DNA of 64,000 nt, taken from the IMG/VR virus record IMGVR_UViG_3300035520_001173, positions 1 through 64,000 of that record, one strand, 5' to 3'. The translations under genes and the position numbers were made by a program. The first letter of the stretch is position 1; each line of letters starts with the position of its first letter. The notes below the pieces were generated by a model, which ran no database searches, was not told the DNA's origin, and saw only the letters and a list, made by a program, of their open reading frames with translations. Positions 45,591-55,156 of this stretch are shown here, piece by piece. Origin of the DNA: a virus (taxonomy: Duplodnaviria; Caudoviricetes).

Positions 45591-48500
45591 ATGATTAACG
45601 AAGAATTTACAGACCTTAGTGGATTGTTCCCTAAGAAGGACAACGATGACGCATTAGACCAAATCGAGGCTGATAGCACGGAGTCTGATGAGTATCTTAG
45701 TTCCGATGAGTGGAATAAGTTAGGCAACTTCCTTACGCAGGTAAAAAAGCGTATTACTGATATTGAGTATAACGCTATTTATGGTATCCGTCAAGGTGCT
45801 ACTACCTTCTATGCTGATGACCATGAAGTTACCTTAACAGAAAATATTGCCACAATCCCTACTCAGGGTACATCAATAAGCGTTGTATTTAAAAATACAA
45901 ATGCAAATTTCGTAAGTGTAAACGGAGAATGCAAACTTGAGTTTAAGGCAATCTCGGTTAAAGAGGGCTCTAACTTCTCTGAAACCGTTGCTGTTGAAGT
46001 ATTGACTGCTCCTACGGGTTCAACAAACTGGACTTCGAGAGGCACTGTCAATGTTAACTCTCGTGGTGATTCATCAACCCAATATGATAGCGTAACTCTT
46101 ACTTCTGATAGTACTGCTACAGGTGATGGTTATATCTATGTTGGTTCAGGTACTCGGCAGTTGAAATTAGTTGGTGTTGGCCAAAGTAGCCGTGTTGAGG
46201 GTAGCTCTGATATTGCTACAATATCATTGACTTCACTCAAGCTTGTCAACAAAATCAACTATAATACCCCTATTGATGCATCTAATGCTATCTTCCCCAT
46301 TTCTTACCAAATTTATGGTGGTATTAACAAGACTTTACATGTAGAGATTACAGGTAGTACAAGTACATATAGTACAACTTATACTATCGGCACAACTCAG
46401 TATGATACAGAGAATTTCTCTCGTAATATTACTGACCCAAATAATGCCAACGGTATTCTCTCTCATGGTGTCCATACAGTAACTGCGTGGTTGACTGCTT
46501 TAGATGGTGATGGTAATGAGGTTTCAAGTGATAAGCTTGTCAACCAATTCATGGTCATCAACAATGATACTGCAACCGTTTCTGAACGTACACAACCTTA
46601 TCTCATGCTGCAAGGCATGGGCGCAACTACTGAAGTTACCAACTATGTGCAGGCTAATCTCTGCAACTATGCAGTATTCGTCCCTAAGTATGTAGATGGC
46701 AAAATCGTAGCTGATACTGATAGTGAAATCAATCTTAAATTCCTTATCACTTCATATTCGGAAAATCCTCTGAATGATGATAATATGGTTACTTACTTAA
46801 CTGTAAGCGAACCCGTTAAGGGTGGTGTTCAATATAATCTTACCACTACCGTAGAAATTGAACCTGCAAGTGAGTCTGAAGCTGAAGCTACTTCTTATGA
46901 CGCTTATTTCCGTGTATGGCGCTATACAACTAATAACGAAGGTGATGTAGTTGATACATTTGACTTCTTGAATGAAAGTTCAGGTTTCACATATCGTAAG
47001 ATTGATGTTGATAACTCTGATTCATTTACCCCTACAAGCGGTGCGTCATTCTTGATTAATCCTAAAGTACGAAGCAATTCGGAAGCCGATTTTAAACGCA
47101 TATACAACGCCAAGGCTGATAACGCCGAAATTGAATCTGTATGGACTGGTTTCAGTGGTGTGAATGACGGTTGGATTACAAGCTCAGATGATAGTCAACG
47201 TGTGCTCCGTGTGCTTGCTGGTGAAAAACTCACAATTAAATATAACCCGTTTGCACAATTCCTTTCAGACCCGAATACGTCATTGACATTTGAAATGGAT
47301 TATAAAGTCCGTAATGTTTCTGACCCTGAGGATGAACAAATTATTGGTATTAATGAAACTGTCGGCGGCAGTACTATTGGTTTGGTAATGTCATCAATTC
47401 GTGCTTACCTCTTAACTAAGAGTAATCAAGTTTCTGAAAACCAAGATTGGCAATGGCAAGAAGATGCTCGTACCCATGTAAGTATCAATATCTGCAATGA
47501 TGTAACTTCAAAAGAAGGTGCTAATAGTCTTGCTCTTGTTCGTGTATTCATTAATGGTGTCCTTAACCGTGAGTTTACCTTTAACAAAACAGATAAGAAT
47601 GAATTCTGTACAGCAGCTTTGAGTAATGGTGGTATTGTAATCGGCTCAAGTTCGGCTGATATTGATATTTACTCACTTCGTTGCTACACAAATCAAACTC
47701 TTTCTCCGAGAAATATTGTTAAAAACTGGATTGCTACACTTCCGACTTCCGCTGAGAAATTACAAGCTCGTGAAGATAATGATATTCTTGATTCTGAGAC
47801 AAATCTTATCACCGTTTCAAAACTCGCAGAGCATAAGAAACGTTGTTTGATTTGGCACGGTGTTGAGCCTTATCAGATGCTTTCTTCTAAGCAGCCTGGT
47901 TATTGGGAAATTCGTCAATACAATGACGATGGCTCTATCAATAATGAAATTTCAGGTACAATCGGCAAGGAATCTTATCTTGCATATTTGAAAGACAGCT
48001 CTGTTAACTGTTTGGTTGCCTCTCGTCAAGGTTCTACAGCTAACACTTATTATTGGTCTAATATGCAGACCAAGATTAAAGACTTGAAGAATAAAATTAC
48101 TGTTAAACTGTCAGATTTTCACTCTTCAATTACGGTCGTTGTTAATGATGACAATACTGCAACAATTACAGGCGGTAATATTGATGGCACTTACGAATTA
48201 GTTGACAACGAAACCGCTGTACAAGTAGTCGATGGTTGGGTTGATTTCAATGGTAAGTATCACGGCAACGGTTTCCAAGTGGCAACTACTGTTCCTCTTG
48301 GTCAAAAAATGGTTAATAAGATTAACTACGCTTCTTCAATGCAAAGTCACCTTTGCGGTGGTGTAGCTTCTTATAACGATTTGCATACTGCTATTGTAGG
48401 CAAGAATGACTTACAAGTTGATACACCTAACGCTCGTGTGTCAAAATATACAGAACCTTTCTTCTTCTTTGTACAAGAAACTGAAACCGCTGAACCCGAA

Positions 48501-51500
48501 TACCGTGGTCCTTCGACATTTGGCCCAGGTAAGATGGATGATGTAACTTGGGGTCTTAAGAAGAAAGTTCACAAATATTTCGCAATGATTGAGGGCGCAG
48601 AAAATAACTACCCCTTGACCGATATGCGTGTTCCTTTTGACGAGAACGTAACTGCTCACTTCGATAGTGGTGAACAGGACGGATGGAATGACCCTGTTAA
48701 AGGTGATGTCGCAATTGATATTGATAAGTTTGCATCTTCGGCAACCGACTCTGAAGGTAATTCAATTCCAAGTGAAGAAATTACTAACAAGATTAAAGCT
48801 GCATGGAACTTCTTATATTGGCACAATCCTCGTATTACTTACTATTCTAATGCATACGAGACATTCTTGACTGACGATTCTCTTGATACCACTATGGCCT
48901 ATTGGTTTACGAGCGGTACTAGGAAATATCAACTTGTACGTTATGCAGGTGAAAAATTAGGTTGGGTTGATGCAGGTATGCTAAGCGGTAGTACTTATGC
49001 GGTTCGTGACCTTTCTACTGATACTATTACAAAGTCGGCATTTAGTGATTCTTCAATTGCAGGTGATTACTCTAAGATGAACTCAGCTATCATTGCTGCT
49101 CTTGCTGCTGATGCTAAATTACATATTGGCGAATATTTCAATGTGGAATCATTGAAATTCCACTATGCATATGTAAATCATTTCATTGCAGGTACTGATA
49201 ACTGTTCTAAGAACACTTATTATGTTCTTGCTCCGAGGACTAAGGATGGCGTCACTACATGGTTAATTGAGCTTCACCAAGATGACCTTGATACTATCTT
49301 CTCAACTGATAATACAGGCCGTCAAACTAAGCCTTACTACATTGACCGTCAACATCCGTATGCTGATGGTAAGCCTAACGATATTCTTTACGAAGGTAGT
49401 GCAAATGTTCTGTTTAACCTTGTAGAATTGATGTATGAAGATAGTAAGGAACTTCAAACAATGCTCCACAATATTTTCACTACAATGTGCGAACTTGTTG
49501 GTAAAGAAGATGATCTTGTTGGCCTTACTAACAATGAAACTAAGAAAACGCCTTGGGGTTTCTTGCACAAATATTATTTCAACGTACAAAACTATTTCCC
49601 CGCTATAGCTTGGAATGAAATGGCACGTATTCGTTACGAATACCCTGCTTCAACAGGCTTCGTTTCAACAGGTGGTCGTAGTGTTCCCCCGTTGACTCAA
49701 TCTTTGGGTAATCAACTTGAGGCTGAAAAGCAATATATGAAACGTAGGCTTATCTACGCTGCTTCATATGCTGCTTGGGGCGATTTTGAATACGCAACAA
49801 CAGGTAGCGTTGGCATTTCAGATGTAGCAAGTTCTTTCGGTTTTCAAGGCTACAAATTGCCCAATGGTCAAACTGCTTCATATAAGATTAGCGTAACTCC
49901 TCACCAATACATCTATCCGACGGGTAACACAGGTAGTAATACTGTTGACCCACATGTTCGCCTATCTCCTGGCCAAACTTATAAGTTTAACCTTGGTACT
50001 GTTGATGGAGATACTGGTGTTGCAATCTTTGCAGCTAACTATTATCGTTCATTCGGTAATGTCGGTGATTTATCTTGTAAAGCTGATGCACAGTTTACTC
50101 TTACAGGCAAACGCTTAATTGAATTTACCGCCGAACCCACCTTATTGTATGATGGTCAAGCCGCTTTCCGCCCTAAACAGTTTGCTATCAACGGCGCTAA
50201 TGCTCTGAAATCTTTCAGCTTGAAAGGTTGCGATGGCATTAAAGGTAGTCTTGATTTAAGCGAATTGATTCGTGTTAAGACAATTGATGTTTGCGGTACA
50301 GGAATTACGAGTGTAGTTCTACCTGAAAGTGAGAACCTTAAGAAAGTTTGCTTACCTGCAAAACTTACTGAATTAACTCTTGATGATGTTCCCAATCTCA
50401 ATGACCTTACTCTTGAAGGCTATTCTGCATTGAAATCAATCAAAATCAGTGATAATGTAGGCGCTCTTAATACTCAAGCGATTATTAGTTCTTGTTACGA
50501 TAACAACGCTCCTTTGGAAAGTGTTAGCATTGCCAATATTAATTGGACTAATGCATCGGCTACTATTTTGGATTGGCTTCTCGATGTTAAGTCTTTATCT
50601 CTATCAGGTAGAATTGAATTAGCAAGCAATGTGGCTATCTCTTATAGCACTAAGATGAAGCTTGTATCTCTTTTCGGCAATATTGATTCTGAAACCAACT
50701 CTCTGTATATTAAGTATAAACAGAACGGTATCAATACAATTGAGATTGCTTGCCCCACTGAGTTTACTAAGGTAGGCACCTACACCGACTTCTCAATTTC
50801 AACATTGCCTACAACAGGTAATAACATTAAGATTAATAATGATGGTACCCCTGCAATCACTTGGTCTATCAGTTCTGAAGCTGCTGCTTATGCCGAATTC
50901 ACGGATTCTGCTAATGGTGTATTCAAGGTTAAGCAATTGGAGCAAAGAGACTCTAACTCTTACCACACTGTAACTGTTAGTGTTGAGCTTCTTAGCGGTA
51001 AGACTCTGACTGCTTCAACTAGGATTCACTTGTTTAGACGTATTCCTGAAGTGGGTGACTTTGCATGGCATGATGGTTCATTCAGCAATGCATTCACAAC
51101 TTTGAAAACTCTTGTTGGTATTGTATATCGTGTTGTTAAAGTTTCCGACGCTGAATATACAGTTCATATTGATGCTGCAAAGACTGTAAACGTTAAGAAC
51201 TCAGCAGGTACTGTAAGCGCTGGCTCTACTCTTCCTTGGGGTCTTTTCAATTCAACTGATACCAATGGTTTCTCAACCGATGTTGCTACTGAAATCATGA
51301 ACGCCACAGGTTGGTCTTCTACAGGTAGTGTATTTGATATTGCTGAATTAACCAACTACACTTCAACAGGCTTAGGTAATGGCTCAGTTCATAGCAGCGG
51401 AGGGTATCTTGAAAAAGATAACTACATTGATGAAACAACTGATGATGGCTATAAGACAATTTCAAGTGGTTCTGTAACTGATTTCAACCATAAGTCCAAT

Positions 51501-52109
51501 ACTGATAAAATTGTTGCCCATGCTAATGCAATCATTGATAAGTATCTTGATAAGTCTCGCCCCGAAACTACAGAGGAACTTGCTGACTTGATGTATTGGT
51601 GTCAACAACAAGACCAAACAGGTAATATGTACACCAAGTATTGGCAGTTATGCTACCCTGCTGCTTATGCTTGCCGTGTATATGCCCCTACCGTTGCTGA
51701 TGGTCAAGTCTTAGACGATGCTTATAAGGCAGGCTCTTGGGATTTGCCCGCCACAGGTGATGCAGGACGCATTTATAACTTCTATCACGCTTCACGTAAT
51801 TATGTAGAAAGTAGTACCCCTACTTCAACTTACGCCGTGGATGAAGATTCATTCAATGTTATGCAAGAGGCCCTTAAGCCTGTTTTTGCTCAAGCATTGA
51901 AACGTATGGAAGATGCAGGAGTTACCTCGTCAGGCTATGGTACGTATATGACGCTGCACAGCAACAGTTACCACTGGTGTTCCACAGAGTGCGGCTCGAA
52001 CGGCGCTTGGAACATGTACTTTACCAATGGTAACTGCAACGGCAACGGCTACGGCAAGGGCAACCGTTGCGTTGTGCGGGCAGTTGTCGCATATCCCTTT
52101 ACCCTTTAG
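45591..52109 (+). CDS. 2172-aa adhesin/tail-fibre-like DGR target protein (LamG-like, CotH-kinase-like, LRR-like, C-type-lectin-like VR domain)
   Basis: LamG-like TFEMDY...THVSINI...VFINGV...IDIYSLRCY; CotH-like AGTDNCSKNTY...HQDDLDT...DNTG; LRR-like region at about 50200-50600; C-terminal HWCSTE...AW.M.F..G......VRAV containing the VR. Confidence 0.8.
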   Translation: MINEEFTDLSGLFPKKDNDDALDQIEADSTESDEYLSSDEWNKLGNFLTQVKKRITDIEYNAIYGIRQGATTFYADDHEVTLTENIATIPTQGTSISVVFKNTNANFVSVNGECKLEFKAISVKEGSNFSETVAVEVLTAPTGSTNWTSRGTVNVNSRGDSSTQYDSVTLTSDSTATGDGYIYVGSGTRQLKLVGVGQSSRVEGSSDIATISLTSLKLVNKINYNTPIDASNAIFPISYQIYGGINKTLHVEITGSTSTYSTTYTIGTTQYDTENFSRNITDPNNANGILSHGVHTVTAWLTALDGDGNEVSSDKLVNQFMVINNDTATVSERTQPYLMLQGMGATTEVTNYVQANLCNYAVFVPKYVDGKIVADTDSEINLKFLITSYSENPLNDDNMVTYLTVSEPVKGGVQYNLTTTVEIEPASESEAEATSYDAYFRVWRYTTNNEGDVVDTFDFLNESSGFTYRKIDVDNSDSFTPTSGASFLINPKVRSNSEADFKRIYNAKADNAEIESVWTGFSGVNDGWITSSDDSQRVLRVLAGEKLTIKYNPFAQFLSDPNTSLTFEMDYKVRNVSDPEDEQIIGINETVGGSTIGLVMSSIRAYLLTKSNQVSENQDWQWQEDARTHVSINICNDVTSKEGANSLALVRVFINGVLNREFTFNKTDKNEFCTAALSNGGIVIGSSSADIDIYSLRCYTNQTLSPRNIVKNWIATLPTSAEKLQAREDNDILDSETNLITVSKLAEHKKRCLIWHGVEPYQMLSSKQPGYWEIRQYNDDGSINNEISGTIGKESYLAYLKDSSVNCLVASRQGSTANTYYWSNMQTKIKDLKNKITVKLSDFHSSITVVVNDDNTATITGGNIDGTYELVDNETAVQVVDGWVDFNGKYHGNGFQVATTVPLGQKMVNKINYASSMQSHLCGGVASYNDLHTAIVGKNDLQVDTPNARVSKYTEPFFFFVQETETAEPEYRGPSTFGPGKMDDVTWGLKKKVHKYFAMIEGAENNYPLTDMRVPFDENVTAHFDSGEQDGWNDPVKGDVAIDIDKFASSATDSEGNSIPSEEITNKIKAAWNFLYWHNPRITYYSNAYETFLTDDSLDTTMAYWFTSGTRKYQLVRYAGEKLGWVDAGMLSGSTYAVRDLSTDTITKSAFSDSSIAGDYSKMNSAIIAALAADAKLHIGEYFNVESLKFHYAYVNHFIAGTDNCSKNTYYVLAPRTKDGVTTWLIELHQDDLDTIFSTDNTGRQTKPYYIDRQHPYADGKPNDILYEGSANVLFNLVELMYEDSKELQTMLHNIFTTMCELVGKEDDLVGLTNNETKKTPWGFLHKYYFNVQNYFPAIAWNEMARIRYEYPASTGFVSTGGRSVPPLTQSLGNQLEAEKQYMKRRLIYAASYAAWGDFEYATTGSVGISDVASSFGFQGYKLPNGQTASYKISVTPHQYIYPTGNTGSNTVDPHVRLSPGQTYKFNLGTVDGDTGVAIFAANYYRSFGNVGDLSCKADAQFTLTGKRLIEFTAEPTLLYDGQAAFRPKQFAINGANALKSFSLKGCDGIKGSLDLSELIRVKTIDVCGTGITSVVLPESENLKKVCLPAKLTELTLDDVPNLNDLTLEGYSALKSIKISDNVGALNTQAIISSCYDNNAPLESVSIANINWTNASATILDWLLDVKSLSLSGRIELASNVAISYSTKMKLVSLFGNIDSETNSLYIKYKQNGINTIEIACPTEFTKVGTYTDFSISTLPTTGNNIKINNDGTPAITWSISSEAAAYAEFTDSANGVFKVKQLEQRDSNSYHTVTVSVELLSGKTLTASTRIHLFRRIPEVGDFAWHDGSFSNAFTTLKTLVGIVYRVVKVSDAEYTVHIDAAKTVNVKNSAGTVSAGSTLPWGLFNSTDTNGFSTDVATEIMNATGWSSTGSVFDIAELTNYTSTGLGNGSVHSSGGYLEKDNYIDETTDDGYKTISSGSVTDFNHKSNTDKIVAHANAIIDKYLDKSRPETTEELADLMYWCQQQDQTGNMYTKYWQLCYPAAYACRVYAPTVADGQVLDDAYKAGSWDLPATGDAGRIYNFYHASRNYVESSTPTSTYAVDEDSFNVMQEALKPVFAQALKRMEDAGVTSSGYGTYMTLHSNSYHWCSTECGSNGAWNMYFTNGNCNGNGYGKGNRCVVRAVVAYPFTL
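51965..52092 (+). repeat. DGR variable repeat (VR), including the IMH
   Basis: Aligns with TR 53262-53383: 14 substitutions at TR adenines (12 to G, 2 to T), one non-A mismatch and a 6-nt insertion. Confidence 0.95.
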
Positions 52110-52115
52110 CCCTTT

Positions 52116-52138
52116 GTGAGTAGCCTTGCGCTGCTCAC
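52116..52138 (+). promoter_or_regulatory. DGR target-recognition hairpin downstream of the IMH
   Basis: GTGAGTAGC-CTTGC-GCTGCTCAC, 6 nt after the stop codon. Confidence 0.7.
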
Positions 52139-52190
52139 TATAGAACATTTAAATAAACTCGTTTAGTGGGGCAGTAAGCAACTACGCTAT

Positions 52191-52233
52191 GAATAACACG
52201 GGTAACCTTCTTCTTATCCGTGTTATTCTTTTT
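52191..52233 (+). terminator. Terminator after the adhesin gene
   Basis: GAATAACACGGGTAA...TTATCCGTGTTATTC plus T tract. Confidence 0.8.
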
Positions 52234-52254
52234 ATACTGTTTTACTACTATAAC

Positions 52255-52283
52255 TTGACTTTTTAAAACCCGTATAATATATT
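52255..52283 (+). promoter_or_regulatory. Sigma70-like promoter of the avd-TR-RT cassette
   Basis: TTGACT-17 nt-TATATT, about 240 nt upstream of avd. Confidence 0.6.
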
Positions 52284-52522
52284 TTATTAGACATAAATTC
52301 GAAAACAACTTAAACTGTTTAACAGATTGTCTTGAGGTACAGAGCAGGCAATGCCAAAGAAATAACAGTCTCTTCTTGCTAAGCTTTCTGAAACTGTTTA
52401 TTTTGTTTAAAATTATACCAATTTTAAAAAATATGTTTAAAAACAGTATTTTTTAGCATATTGATATATTTATTAATATAAATAAAAATAAATAAGAGAA
52501 TAAAAAAACAGCAAACAAATTT

Positions 52523-53119
52523 ATGGCGTTCAACGAAAAGAACGAAGACAAATTAAAATATGATGTTAATTTTAGTGGTCTTAAGAACTTGAGATATAGC
52601 GATGATAAAAATCGCATGATGAGAATTAAGGACTTAAACGACGATGGTGGTTGCGTTATACTCCCCTCTGATTCTGTAGAACGGAGCAACTACCTGAAAG
52701 AAGTAATGGGACAGAAAGGCGTTTGCCGATTACCTGTATTTAAAGAGATGGGTAATTTGATTTATACTATAGTTGAATTGTTACCAATCGCCCCTCACGC
52801 CTCTAAGCCCTATTTCGATTCAGTTATTCTTTTGGCTAATGATATTTTAGCGAAAATTACATTAGCTAATGAGATATTAAGCGCTGACGCTGAAAAACGT
52901 GCCGACCTTATTAGTCAGTGTATTGCGTTAGTGCAGGCATTAAACATCCACTTAGTGATAATTTCTCGCCTTCATCAGCAAGGCAAGGGCAGTCACCTTC
53001 TTTTTAATAGAAAGAGCTTGTCGCAAGTGGTCAAAAGGTCCGAGAAAGTTGCCAAACAATTGTATGGATGGCGTAGTTACACTCTCGGCCTGCGCAAGGG
53101 TCATAATGATGTTGTATGA
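52523..53119 (+). CDS. avd: DGR accessory variability determinant (Avd-like four-helix bundle)
   Basis: LPVFKEM..LI...V...LANDILAKITLAN...QLYGWR; canonical position before TR and RT. Confidence 0.75.
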   Translation: MAFNEKNEDKLKYDVNFSGLKNLRYSDDKNRMMRIKDLNDDGGCVILPSDSVERSNYLKEVMGQKGVCRLPVFKEMGNLIYTIVELLPIAPHASKPYFDSVILLANDILAKITLANEILSADAEKRADLISQCIALVQALNIHLVIISRLHQQGKGSHLLFNRKSLSQVVKRSEKVAKQLYGWRSYTLGLRKGHNDVV

Positions 53120-53261
53120 TTATGAGAATGCGTAAGAACCCATCATATGGGCGGTTTACTTGTAAGAGCCACCAAACAAAATTTAAAAGGTTAATTCCGA
53201 TGAACAATAAAAATTTATTCTCGGTTCTCATAAGTTACGAAGTTGCAAAACCGCAATCGGG

Positions 53262-53383
53262 CAGTAACCACTGGTGTTCCACAGAGTACAACTCGAACAA
53301 CGCTTGGAACATGAACTTTACCAATGGTAACTACAACAACAACAACAAGTACAACCGTTACGTTGTGCGGGCAGTTGTCGCAT
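53262..53383 (+). repeat. DGR template repeat (TR)
   Basis: AAC-rich invariant copy of the VR lying between avd and RT; ends GTTGTGCGGGCAGTTGTCGCAT (IMH*). Confidence 0.95.
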
Positions 53384-53465
53384 GTGGTGATGGTTCAAAT
53401 AGTAAATCTTCTCAATTCCTTGAGAATAAATTAAGAAATTATTTCTTTTTGCCATAGTTTATTTA

Positions 53466-54782
53466 ATGACCGAAGAAGATAAGTTCATGGACTCCGTAAT
53501 TTATGCTTATTACGATTGTCTTAGAGGAAAGAGAAGTAGCGTTGAGGCTGTGCATTATCAAAATATTGTTAGGCACGACCTTCCGATTTTAGCCAAAAGC
53601 ATGTGGGATGGCACTTATTCTCCATCACCAAGTACTTGCTTTATGGTTCATAAGCCTAAAGACCGAGAAGTCTTTGCGGCAAATTTTAGAGACAGAATTG
53701 TCCACCACTGGATATGTTTGAGGCTTGAACCTCTGTTCGAGAAACATATTTTTGTGCCGATGGGAAATGTCTCTTTCAACTGCAGAAAGGGCTTCGGCAC
53801 CACTGCGGCAGTCAATTACATTGAGAAGAATTTAGTAAGGTTGACAAATAATTATCAAAAAGAAGTTACTTACTTTAAAGGAGATTTATCTGGTTTCTTT
53901 ATGAGTATCCTAAAGCCTCTTTTGAATGCAAAGCTTAAAACCTTTATTGAAAAGTACTATCATGGAGATTATAAGTCAATCTTGCTAAATTTAACTCAAG
54001 TAACTGTTTTGCACCACCCTGAAAGGAACTGTATTATTAATTCAGACGCTAAAGAGTGGCTCAAGTTGCCAAAAAATAAATCTCTATTCTATTCTGAAGA
54101 TAGAGGTATGCCAATCGGCAATTTGACTACTCAACTTTTTGCTAATTTCTTTATGTCGGAGTTTGATGCTTTTGTAAGGAAATACTTTAAAGAGCAAGAT
54201 TATGCATATGCACGTTTTGTTGATGACTTCATAATCCTTTGCCGTAATAAAAAGTTCTTAAAAGAGTCAATACCTGTACTCGAAAATTTCTTATGGGAAG
54301 AGTTAAGTTTAACACTTCACAAGAATAAAAGAAGTATGCAGAAGGCAACTCGTGGAGTTTTGTTCTGTGGAACATATTTAAAAGTAAAAAGGAAGTATTT
54401 ATCTAATAGAACAGTTAGTAACTTTTATAGTAGAATCCATGGCTTCAATGAAGATATCAAAAATAAAGAGCCAAATATGTTTGAGCTCGAACATATGGTA
54501 GCAACTATGAACTCCTATCTTGGATTCTGCAAAGGATTAAAAACATTCAAACTTCGAAAGAAAATATTTGAGCAATTTGACAAAGAGAAATTTGATAAGT
54601 ATTTTTTAATAGATGAGAATTTAAGTAAAGTACAACTTAAAGATGAATACAAACCTATTGCTAATAGAGATTACCAAAAAATAGGACTTATAAAGAATAA
54701 AAATAAAAAGAATAAAAAGAGACGATGGAGAAAGTCAAATACAGTGAATACCCTTCGGTCATCACCGCAACCAAATTCTTAA
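53466..54782 (+). CDS. DGR reverse transcriptase
   Basis: KPKDREVFAANFRDRIVHH, SFNCRKGFG, GDLSGFFMSI, GMPIGNLTTQLFANFFM, RFVDDF, FCG. Confidence 0.95.
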   Translation: MTEEDKFMDSVIYAYYDCLRGKRSSVEAVHYQNIVRHDLPILAKSMWDGTYSPSPSTCFMVHKPKDREVFAANFRDRIVHHWICLRLEPLFEKHIFVPMGNVSFNCRKGFGTTAAVNYIEKNLVRLTNNYQKEVTYFKGDLSGFFMSILKPLLNAKLKTFIEKYYHGDYKSILLNLTQVTVLHHPERNCIINSDAKEWLKLPKNKSLFYSEDRGMPIGNLTTQLFANFFMSEFDAFVRKYFKEQDYAYARFVDDFIILCRNKKFLKESIPVLENFLWEELSLTLHKNKRSMQKATRGVLFCGTYLKVKRKYLSNRTVSNFYSRIHGFNEDIKNKEPNMFELEHMVATMNSYLGFCKGLKTFKLRKKIFEQFDKEKFDKYFLIDENLSKVQLKDEYKPIANRDYQKIGLIKNKNKKNKKRRWRKSNTVNTLRSSPQPNS

Positions 54783-55156
54783 CAATGGATTCAACATCCA
54801 TAAACATTGCCGTGGCAAAACAGGAAGCTGAAAATGATGAAACTCCTCAATATGAAGCTTACACCACTAGTATCTCAAAGGCTACTATTGTAGATGTATT
54901 AGCTGCAATTGTAGAGAGTGAATTACTTGAGAAGTGTACTACTGATGAGCTTAAAGAAATTTTTAATCACTTCAAGATAGATAGCTACGATGAAGCCGTT
55001 ACCGCTCTTGTGCGCAGTAAATATTCAGCAGACAAAGTTGAAGCTATCTTATGCAATAGAGGTGACAATAACGCTGAACACGAACAAGAATATACTCAAT
55101 TTCAAACGTGGAGAACCTATTCAAAAGAATTATCCTCAAAGATTTTCGATAGGTAA
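54725..55156 (+). CDS. Putative tail-fibre assembly chaperone
   Basis: ALVRSKYSADKVEAILCN...EYTQFQTWR; position after the fibre/DGR cassette. Confidence 0.5.
   Translation: MEKVKYSEYPSVITATKFLTMDSTSINIAVAKQEAENDETPQYEAYTTSISKATIVDVLAAIVESELLEKCTTDELKEIFNHFKIDSYDEAVTALVRSKYSADKVEAILCNRGDNNAEHEQEYTQFQTWRTYSKELSSKIFDR

Follow-up and report, generated by a model that had tools for sequence, protein, structure and literature searches.

A six-nucleotide length difference between the template and variable repeats of a phage diversity-generating retroelement, its recurrence at related loci and its possible origins

Diversity-generating retroelements (DGRs) are usually described as altering residue identity only, with the protein scaffold held fixed. 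The survey by Wu, Gingery, Abebe et al. (2018, Nucleic Acids Res 46:11, PMC5758913) reports indels in 7% of DGRs, mostly in multiples of 3. There, 74% of the indels adjoin AAC, and slippage of the reverse transcriptase (RT) out of register on AAC repeats is proposed as their source. Nearly all of the in-frame indels are found among Lineage 4-related DGRs, which are regarded as mostly not phage-associated, and in-frame indels together with non-adenine changes concentrate near the Legionella pneumophila DGR in the RT tree. Transient slippage is also invoked in a 2026 reconstitution of the Bordetella phage BPP-1 DGR (PMC12875486), where it is proposed to account for a misincorporation bias and not for codon insertions.

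The DGR described here lies in a window of 64,000 nucleotides, positions 1 to 64,000 of an 84-kb virus record (IMGVR_UViG_3300035520_001173), and all of its features are on the + strand. In the list of open reading frames, the target gene (45591–52109) encodes a protein of 2172 aa, the last 48 codons of which constitute the variable repeat (VR, 51965–52092), ending 17 nt before the last base of the stop codon (52109). The VR is part of a predicted C-terminal Lcl_C/DUF1566-like domain. A 9-bp hairpin (52116–52138; −7.1 kcal/mol, z −3.08) begins 24 nt 3′ of the VR, where a DGR target-recognition hairpin would be, and a terminator-like stem-loop with a T run follows the target gene at 52191–52228. 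Farther downstream are a putative Avd-like accessory gene of 198 aa (52523–53119), located between VR and TR as fits Avd, the template repeat (TR, 53262–53383), and an intact RT gene of 438 aa (53466–54782) that starts 83 nt 3′ of the TR end.

The RT matches RVT_1 (E 1.5e-13) and phrog_1423 (E 4.5e-65) and has 2153 homologues in a large protein database, the best non-self match being 55% identical. Searches of viral contigs with RT peptide patterns and with the 22-nt 3′ end common to TR and VR returned no close relative of this phage. The accessory protein has no match in Pfam, PHROG, or NCBIfam. A sub-threshold Atlas lead links it to “four helix bundle”/bAvd clusters (feature score 0.85; TM 0.53–0.56 over residues 64–197), and on this comparison it may be a four-helix bundle that is extended at its N-terminus. 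An RT sits beside a TR/VR pair whose differences fall overwhelmingly at TR adenines, the VR occupies the 3′ end of its target gene, and unmutated 3′ homology and a hairpin are found at and beyond the VR end. The element is an ordinary and probably active phage DGR, and the substitution pattern points to past mutagenic retrohoming.

One of the closest known systems, likewise from a phage, is similar in several respects. The BPP-1 DGR (bRT-Avd, TR, VR of mtd, IMH, and hairpin) also combines a target gene with its VR, an accessory gene, a TR, and an RT, shows adenine-specific substitutions, and has its VR at the C-terminal end of a receptor-binding phage protein, followed by a hairpin. However, the RT described here shares only the generic RVT_1 domain with its BPP-1 counterpart, and the accessory protein, unlike Avd, is 198 aa long and has no Avd family match. 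The VR domain of BPP-1 is of the Mtd CLec type, whereas that of the present target is of the Lcl_C/DUF1566 type. The latter is shared with the L. pneumophila DGR and its target LdtA, which the 2018 survey places in category “d” with DUF1566/CLec2 VRs. In contrast to the large phage and the 2172-aa multidomain target found here, the L. pneumophila DGR resides in the chromosome, and its target is a small lipoprotein.

The TR and VR are 84% identical (E 2.9e-35 as a repeat match within the record), and the VR is 128 nt long against 122 nt for the TR. After GGT-AAC, the TR reads TAC (AAC)4 AAG TAC AAC CGT, and the VR opposite this stretch reads TGC AAC GGC AAC GGC TAC GGC AAG GGC AAC CGT. The two repeats were aligned globally with a scoring scheme tolerant of adenine changes, and all six optimal alignments contain a single 6-nt gap within the TR AAC tract (53335–53346), which is the only AAC/AAT run of at least four units in the 84-kb record. 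Opposite this four-unit tract, the VR has six NNC codons, AAC GGC AAC GGC TAC GGC (52038–52055), of which 52038–52049 form a perfect tandem duplication of AACGGC. The variable tract is assumed to be a loop on the basis of the CLec/DUF1566 family literature. Among the 15 substitutions, 14 lie at TR adenines (12 A-to-G and two A-to-T), and the remaining one is a T-to-G change from TR T53350 to VR G52059, converting TAC to GGC. The final 22 nt are common to both repeats and unmutated despite the adenines they contain, as in an IMH-like 3′ homology; this sequence has only two copies in the 84-kb record. The preliminary description had reported a VR two codons longer than its TR and a non-adenine mismatch, and both are borne out. 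It was also correct that a template of the form (AAC)6-AAG-AAC-AAC would yield the VR by adenine changes alone. Other alignments and RT copying paths that avoid the T-to-G change were considered by hand and with the adenine-tolerant aligner, and none is as economical in events as a single 6-nt gap combined with a single T-to-G.

With its 6-nt gap inside the TR (AAC)4, the window is a further example of a class already published in 2018 together with the slippage idea (PMC5758913): the length of the indel is divisible by 3, it lies within a TR AAC tandem repeat, and a non-A-to-N substitution accompanies it. To place it in context, 240 related loci were compared, yielding 175 clean TR/VR pairs. 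In-frame indels occur in 21 of these pairs (12%, about one in eight), every one of them inside AAC runs. The VR is the longer repeat in 18 pairs (+3 in 15, +6 in two, and +24 in one) and the shorter in three; counted by TR cluster, the ratio is 15 to 3 (sign test, p = 0.0075), with lengthening at the homologous tract in 15 of the relatives’ 102 TR clusters. The codons of the lengthened tracts are all NNC or NNT, as mutagenized copies of AAC should be, and those that were added are without exception NNC. The (AAC)4-AAG-TAC-AAC layout of the present TR is the family consensus: the tract has four units in 124 of 175 TRs (range 2 to 6), and the position after AAG is T in 121 and A in 26 of 156.

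The template itself does not follow these changes in length. Three relatives, L230, L115, and L116, are 99.6% identical over 10–11 kb and have one and the same 134-nt TR, yet they carry VR loops of 4, 5, and 6 codons, respectively. Since differences between these VRs are spread over all of their length at the positions of TR adenines, each VR is the product of its own homing event. Length polymorphism is present in seven of 32 multi-member TR clusters, and four groups whose members have the same TR core (seven clusters at about 95% TR identity) differ internally in VR length but not in the TR, indicating that the change arises on the VR side. One phage clade is thereby given an indel rate, a direction, and polymorphism under a constant TR. 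Compared with the 7% of the 2018 survey, the available part of which gives no direction for the indels, 12% of the pairs in this clade carry in-frame indels, with an 18:3 excess of longer VRs; and whereas the indel-bearing DGRs there are mostly non-phage, this clade is phage-borne and its targets are about 2000 aa long.

The preliminary description had offered three origins for the extra codons, namely, RT slippage on the AAC tract, a TR that contracted and acquired an A-to-T change, and a second TR elsewhere in the genome. The first is the best supported by the comparison of relatives. It seems rather likely that it was the VR that changed length, gaining its two extra codons in a mutagenic homing event through slippage in the course of mutagenic reverse transcription or shortly after it. 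In the proposed sequence of events, the RT would copy the TR transcript into an adenine-mutagenized cDNA that would replace the VR at the tip of the 2172-aa fiber or adhesin protein. At the (AAC)4 tract, where mismatches are possible at two of three incorporations, the nascent cDNA may lose register such that two AAC units are copied again; alternatively, the mutagenized NNC run may slip during second-strand synthesis. By either route, the loop would gain two in-frame NNC codons. The anatomy of the repeats, the recurrence and direction of the length change, and the constancy of the TR are observed directly, while the step at which the slip happens is deduced. Added codons of the NNC type, a TR that stays the same, and indels this frequent together suggest RT slippage as the source. 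Slippage alone does not explain the bias toward longer VRs, and selection against loops of fewer than four codons is needed in addition. Likewise, two relatives with a common TR (L070 and L072) are both +3 with different inserted sequences, which requires either frequent slippage or selection on length.

A difficulty for slippage during reverse transcription is that a perfect 6-nt tandem duplication is present in all three +6 cases, an outcome that is not predicted if each unit is re-copied independently with adenine errors at random. This feature would instead be expected if normal homing had produced a four-codon loop, AAC GGC TAC GGC, and replication slippage of the VR had then doubled AACGGC at the DNA level with no involvement of the RT. 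With one unit of the perfect AACGGC-AACGGC repeat at 52038–52049 removed, the VR is explained from the present TR by adenine changes alone, except for the T-to-G. The duplications in three of three +6 cases (the window, L040, and L116) compare with 0.36 expected from codon frequencies, and the excess persists once the background, in which 6-nt periodicity is enriched 1.5-fold (13 observed versus 8.5 expected), is taken into account. However, an insertion made in DNA would be wiped out by the next homing event, and yet indels are present in 12% of pairs; this frequency, together with 99.6%-identical siblings that differ by independent homing, implies that DNA-level insertions would have to occur at a rate of the same order as homing itself. 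Furthermore, no tandem duplicate of the inserted length is present in three of 16 +3 cases (L031, L034, and L070) nor in the +24 case (L182), while the +3 cases as a whole are uninformative, their duplicates being near expectation (13 of 16 versus 11). A DNA-level duplication is considered unlikely, although it is the strongest of the alternatives.

The other two origins that had been put forward fare worse. A TR that formerly read (AAC)6-AAG-AAC-AAC and, once the most recent homing was complete, shed two AAC units and acquired an A-to-T change, through either self-mutagenesis or ordinary mutation, would account for the extra length as well as the T-to-G while mutagenesis remained confined to adenines; in evolution, the TR tract does vary in length (2 to 6 units), and A follows AAG in 26 of 156 TRs. 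The present TR, however, equals the consensus in both features, such that this scenario requires the TR to have left the consensus and later regained it. VR length also varies under an unchanged TR in the four groups with identical TR cores, and TR drift predicts shorter VRs as often as longer ones, against the cluster count of 15 to 3. A change in the TR is thus very improbable. Slightly less credit still is due to a further TR, perhaps accompanied by an RT of its own, in which six AAC units are present and AAG is followed by AAC, and which would have templated this VR. The record is a linear fragment, 24% complete by the CheckV estimate, and three quarters of the genome are unseen. Nonetheless, a search of the 84-kb record for further TRs and RTs found one RT only, a single TR-like match besides the VR, and one AAC run of at least four units, and (AAC)5AAG is absent from both strands of the entire records of four relatives in which the VR is the longer repeat, namely, two phages (96% and 75% complete) and two bacterial assemblies. 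The record being a metagenome assembly, the TR tract might have been collapsed, or the VR might be a chimera of population variants. An artifact of this kind is scarcely credible: the tracts are 12–18 nt, far below read or assembly k-mer length, with unique sequence on both sides, the TR layout is that of the family consensus, and the same pattern recurs in many independent assemblies. One relative with a longer VR, L096, is a cultured isolate assembly (title coverage 245x); therefore, the pattern is not an artifact of metagenomes.

The T-to-G in the TAC codon after AAG would be an independent event, a rare error or mutation at a non-adenine site of the kind that this RT family typically shows. 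Across the family, about 0.65% of non-adenine sites are changed versus 44% of adenines, and T>G is the commonest change at thymine (12 of 21). The site equivalent to TR T53350 (AAG|T) is changed in four relatives, by T>G in L033, L046, and L115 and by T>C in L037. A “dislocation” event, in which the RT skips U and copies the next template G, was considered as a cause; seven of the 12 T>G events follow G, but this enrichment falls short of significance (odds ratio 2.5, p = 0.13), and the idea is speculative.

If homing also alters loop length, the repertoire of the receptor-binding tip exceeds the usual count of N to the power of adenine sites. It is conceivable, though on present evidence doubtful, that the (AAC)4 tract in this phage DGR clade is a selected length-diversifying module, in which the RT would reiteratively copy AAC units such that each homing event could vary both loop sequence and loop length, from 4 to at least 12 codons, with selection removing loops of fewer than four. 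Such variation would resemble the junctional length diversity of antibody CDR3. In practice, about one in eight elements of this clade would be overlooked or wrongly scored by tools that require ungapped TR/VR pairs.

The target proteins of the relatives are approximately 1,900–2,400 aa long where the flanking sequence allows. The AF2 model of the C-terminal domain of the present target is poor, with a mean pLDDT of 62.8 and values below 50 in the VR region. The translated TR matches Lcl_C in Pfam; the open reading frame that contains it (53116–53457) does so as PF07603 with E 3.3e-5, below the curated cut-off. In a literature search, nothing was found on HbP1 and DGRs together. In a profile search, the C-terminal 190 aa of the target match PDB 8q4e, HbP1 (Lcl C-terminal-like), with E 1.6e-6; this structure comes from a paper on the Legionella Lcl adhesin.

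The + strand of the window, which derives from a linear IMG/VR fragment of 84 kb with an estimated completeness of 24%, harbors a compact diversity-generating retroelement (DGR). The target gene (45591–52109) is an ORF of 2172 aa that carries the variable repeat (VR, 51965–52092) at its 3′ end, within the last 48 codons. The VR is followed by a hairpin (52116–52138, z −3.08), a terminator-like stem-loop (52191–52228), and an Avd-like ORF of 198 aa (52523–53119), which has weak Atlas leads only and no family match in Pfam, PHROG, or NCBIfam. The template repeat (TR, 53262–53383) resides within a short ORF (53116–53457), the translation of which matches Pfam Lcl_C and which ends 9 nt ahead of the start codon of an intact, 438-aa reverse transcriptase (RT, 53466–54782; RVT_1, phrog_1423). 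In relatives, the RT protein entries in the database often have an N-terminal PF07603 (Lcl_C) match, such that the TR is read there as one ORF with the RT. A 143-aa ORF (54725–55156) shares 58 nt with the 3′ end of the RT gene and has no match in Pfam or PHROG.

The VR (128 nt) exceeds the TR (122 nt) by two codons. Alignment with MAFFT and with a global aligner that tolerates adenine changes opens one 6-nt gap, in both cases inside the (AAC)4 tract of the TR, and the preliminary description of the two repeats is borne out exactly: 3′ of GGT-AAC, the TR reads TAC (AAC)4 AAG TAC AAC CGT, and the VR reads TGC AAC GGC AAC GGC TAC GGC AAG GGC AAC CGT. TR adenines are the site of 14 of the 15 substitutions, 12 to G, two to T, and none to C (family spectrum: G 50%, T 37%, C 13%), and this preponderance of G renders the VR unusually glycine-rich, with seven GGC codons. 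The 15th substitution is the non-adenine mismatch noted at the outset, T53350 (TR) to G52059 (VR), which is thereby confirmed; each alternative alignment or copying path tried in order to avoid it costs additional events.

The collections searched hold no close relative of the window's phage, with the best homologue of its RT being 55% identical; therefore, 240 loci with RTs of 35–55% identity, drawn from viral, genome, and metagenome contigs, were compared. At each locus, the TR directly 5′ of the RT was matched to its VR(s), and pairs with at least five adenine substitutions and at most three others were considered clean, yielding 175 unique clean pairs in 102 TR clusters. The architecture is conserved: the VR, 0.7–1 kb 5′ of the TR, occupies the end of a target gene that encodes, where the flank allows, ~1,900–2,400 aa. 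The usual tract layout is (AAC)4-AAG-TAC/TAT-AAC (alignment consensus of the encoded peptide, NNNNKYN), with four AAC units in 124 of 175 TRs and a T after AAG in 121 of 156. Thus, the window TR is the standard family form, and its VR is the exception. Seven loci (L117, L120, L127, L226, L229, L238, and L243) have tandem arrays of two to three TR-like/VR-like cassettes 5′ of the RT, each followed by a conserved ~150-nt spacer with an inverted repeat, on contigs mostly binned as Alphaproteobacteria or unbinned from gut metagenomes. Because many non-adenine changes and indels separate the cassettes, they are not simple TR/VR pairs, and these loci were left out of the statistics.

Indels occur in 21 of the 175 pairs (12%), including one from a cultured isolate assembly (L096), and all 21 are multiples of three within an AAC run. 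The VR is longer in 18 pairs (+3 nt in 15, +6 nt in L040 and L116, and +24 nt in L182) and shorter in three; in two of the latter, whose TRs have five or six AAC units, the indel falls in the main tract, and in L086 it falls in a distinct pair of AAC units. Counted by TR cluster, longer VRs outnumber shorter ones 15 to 3 (sign test p = 0.0075). The codons of the lengthened tracts are all NNC, as expected for mutagenized AAC copies. Length polymorphism is found in seven of the 32 TR clusters with more than one VR. Loci L230, L115, and L116 are 99.6% identical across 10–11 kb and share the same 134-nt TR, and their VR loops comprise 4, 5, and 6 codons, respectively; since the differences among these VRs run the full length of the repeat at TR adenines, each VR stems from its own homing event. 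In TRs with just two or three AAC units, fixed codons fill the remaining loop positions, which suggests a minimum loop of ~4 residues, and selection against shorter loops could then explain the insertion bias. The extreme case, L182:3577–4146 (metagenome contig JAEEGL011878303.1), combines an (AAC)4 TR with a VR tract of 12 NNC codons and is in frame throughout, with no non-adenine change; in the same TR cluster, L031 differs by +3 and L033 by 0.

Among the three origins initially proposed for the extra codons, contraction of the TR together with an A-to-T change after the last homing event is unlikely, since the TR would have to leave the family consensus and then return to it, and since VR length varies under unchanging TRs. 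As the template, a second TR elsewhere in the genome has no support: a search for another TR/RT found none in the 84-kb record, in which RT, TR, and AAC run of at least four units each occur once, and (AAC)5AAG is also absent from the records, searched in full, of four relatives whose VRs are longer. Three quarters of this phage's genome are missing from the record and could hold a second TR, improbable as this is. Assembly collapse of the 12-nt tract of the TR is implausible given its agreement with the family consensus. With these explanations disfavored, a VR-side gain linked to homing remains, and slippage during homing, the best supported of the three origins, is on balance the probable source of the added codons.

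The step at which this occurs is inferred. Slippage in the AAC repeat during cDNA synthesis would add NNC codons to the VR; it is favored because the added codons are NNC, because 12% of pairs are affected although the length ought to be reset at every new homing, and because the event sits in the AAC repeat. However, each of the three +6 VRs, that of the window among them (two copies of AACGGC, 52038–52049), contains a perfect 6-nt tandem duplication where 0.36 would be expected, and background periodicity lifts this expectation just ~1.5-fold. These duplications count against simple cDNA slippage, as independent error-prone re-copying predicts no identical units. Alternatively, the slip may take place on the already mutagenized strand, either while the second strand is made or subsequently in VR DNA, for which identical 6-nt units are predicted. 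The same perfect repeats would suit a purely DNA-level duplication in the VR, yet we regard this as improbable. Simple duplication cannot account for three of the +3 VRs or for the +24 VR. The +3 cases taken together are non-discriminating, with a tandem duplicate in 13 of 16 versus 11 expected.

In the survey of 372 DGRs by Wu et al. 2018, length differed in 7%, usually by multiples of 3 and beside AAC in 74%, and non-A-to-N substitutions occurred in 23% (PMC5758913). Nearly all in-frame indels are placed around Lineage 4 and the DGRs of Legionella and Treponema, a neighborhood that includes DUF1566-type VRs, and RT slippage is proposed because mismatches are possible at two of three incorporations (PMC5758913). 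The same slippage model is cited in a 2026 study that reconstituted the DGR of BPP-1 (PMC12875486). The window is thus a further instance of something already described and explained in the literature. For one phage-borne clade, the present comparison adds how often the indels occur (12%), their direction (18:3 in favor of longer VRs), loops that reach 12 codons, and variation in length among near-identical elements that share one TR, none of which was found in the consulted portion of Wu et al. 2018 (PMC5758913).

Within the diversified core, non-adenine sites differ in the family at ~0.65% per site, and adenines at 44%. T>G makes up 12 of the 21 changes at T, more than any other, and the T after AAG is altered to G in L033, L046, and L115 and to C in L037; the window T-to-G thus has precedents in the family in both kind and position. 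It may be an RT mistake, or selection may have favored a small residue, Gly or Ala, over Tyr. A “dislocation” in which the RT looks ahead to the next template G suits the window site and is statistically unsupported (p = 0.13). Fixed, lineage-shared non-adenine differences are also observed at the repeat edges, namely, C>A at the 5′ edge (offset −92 from AAG in L013, L014, L022, L023, L027, and L173) and C>T just past the 3′ end (+36 in ~14 loci); these resemble limits of the segment that is transferred (IMH-type differences) rather than products of mutagenesis.
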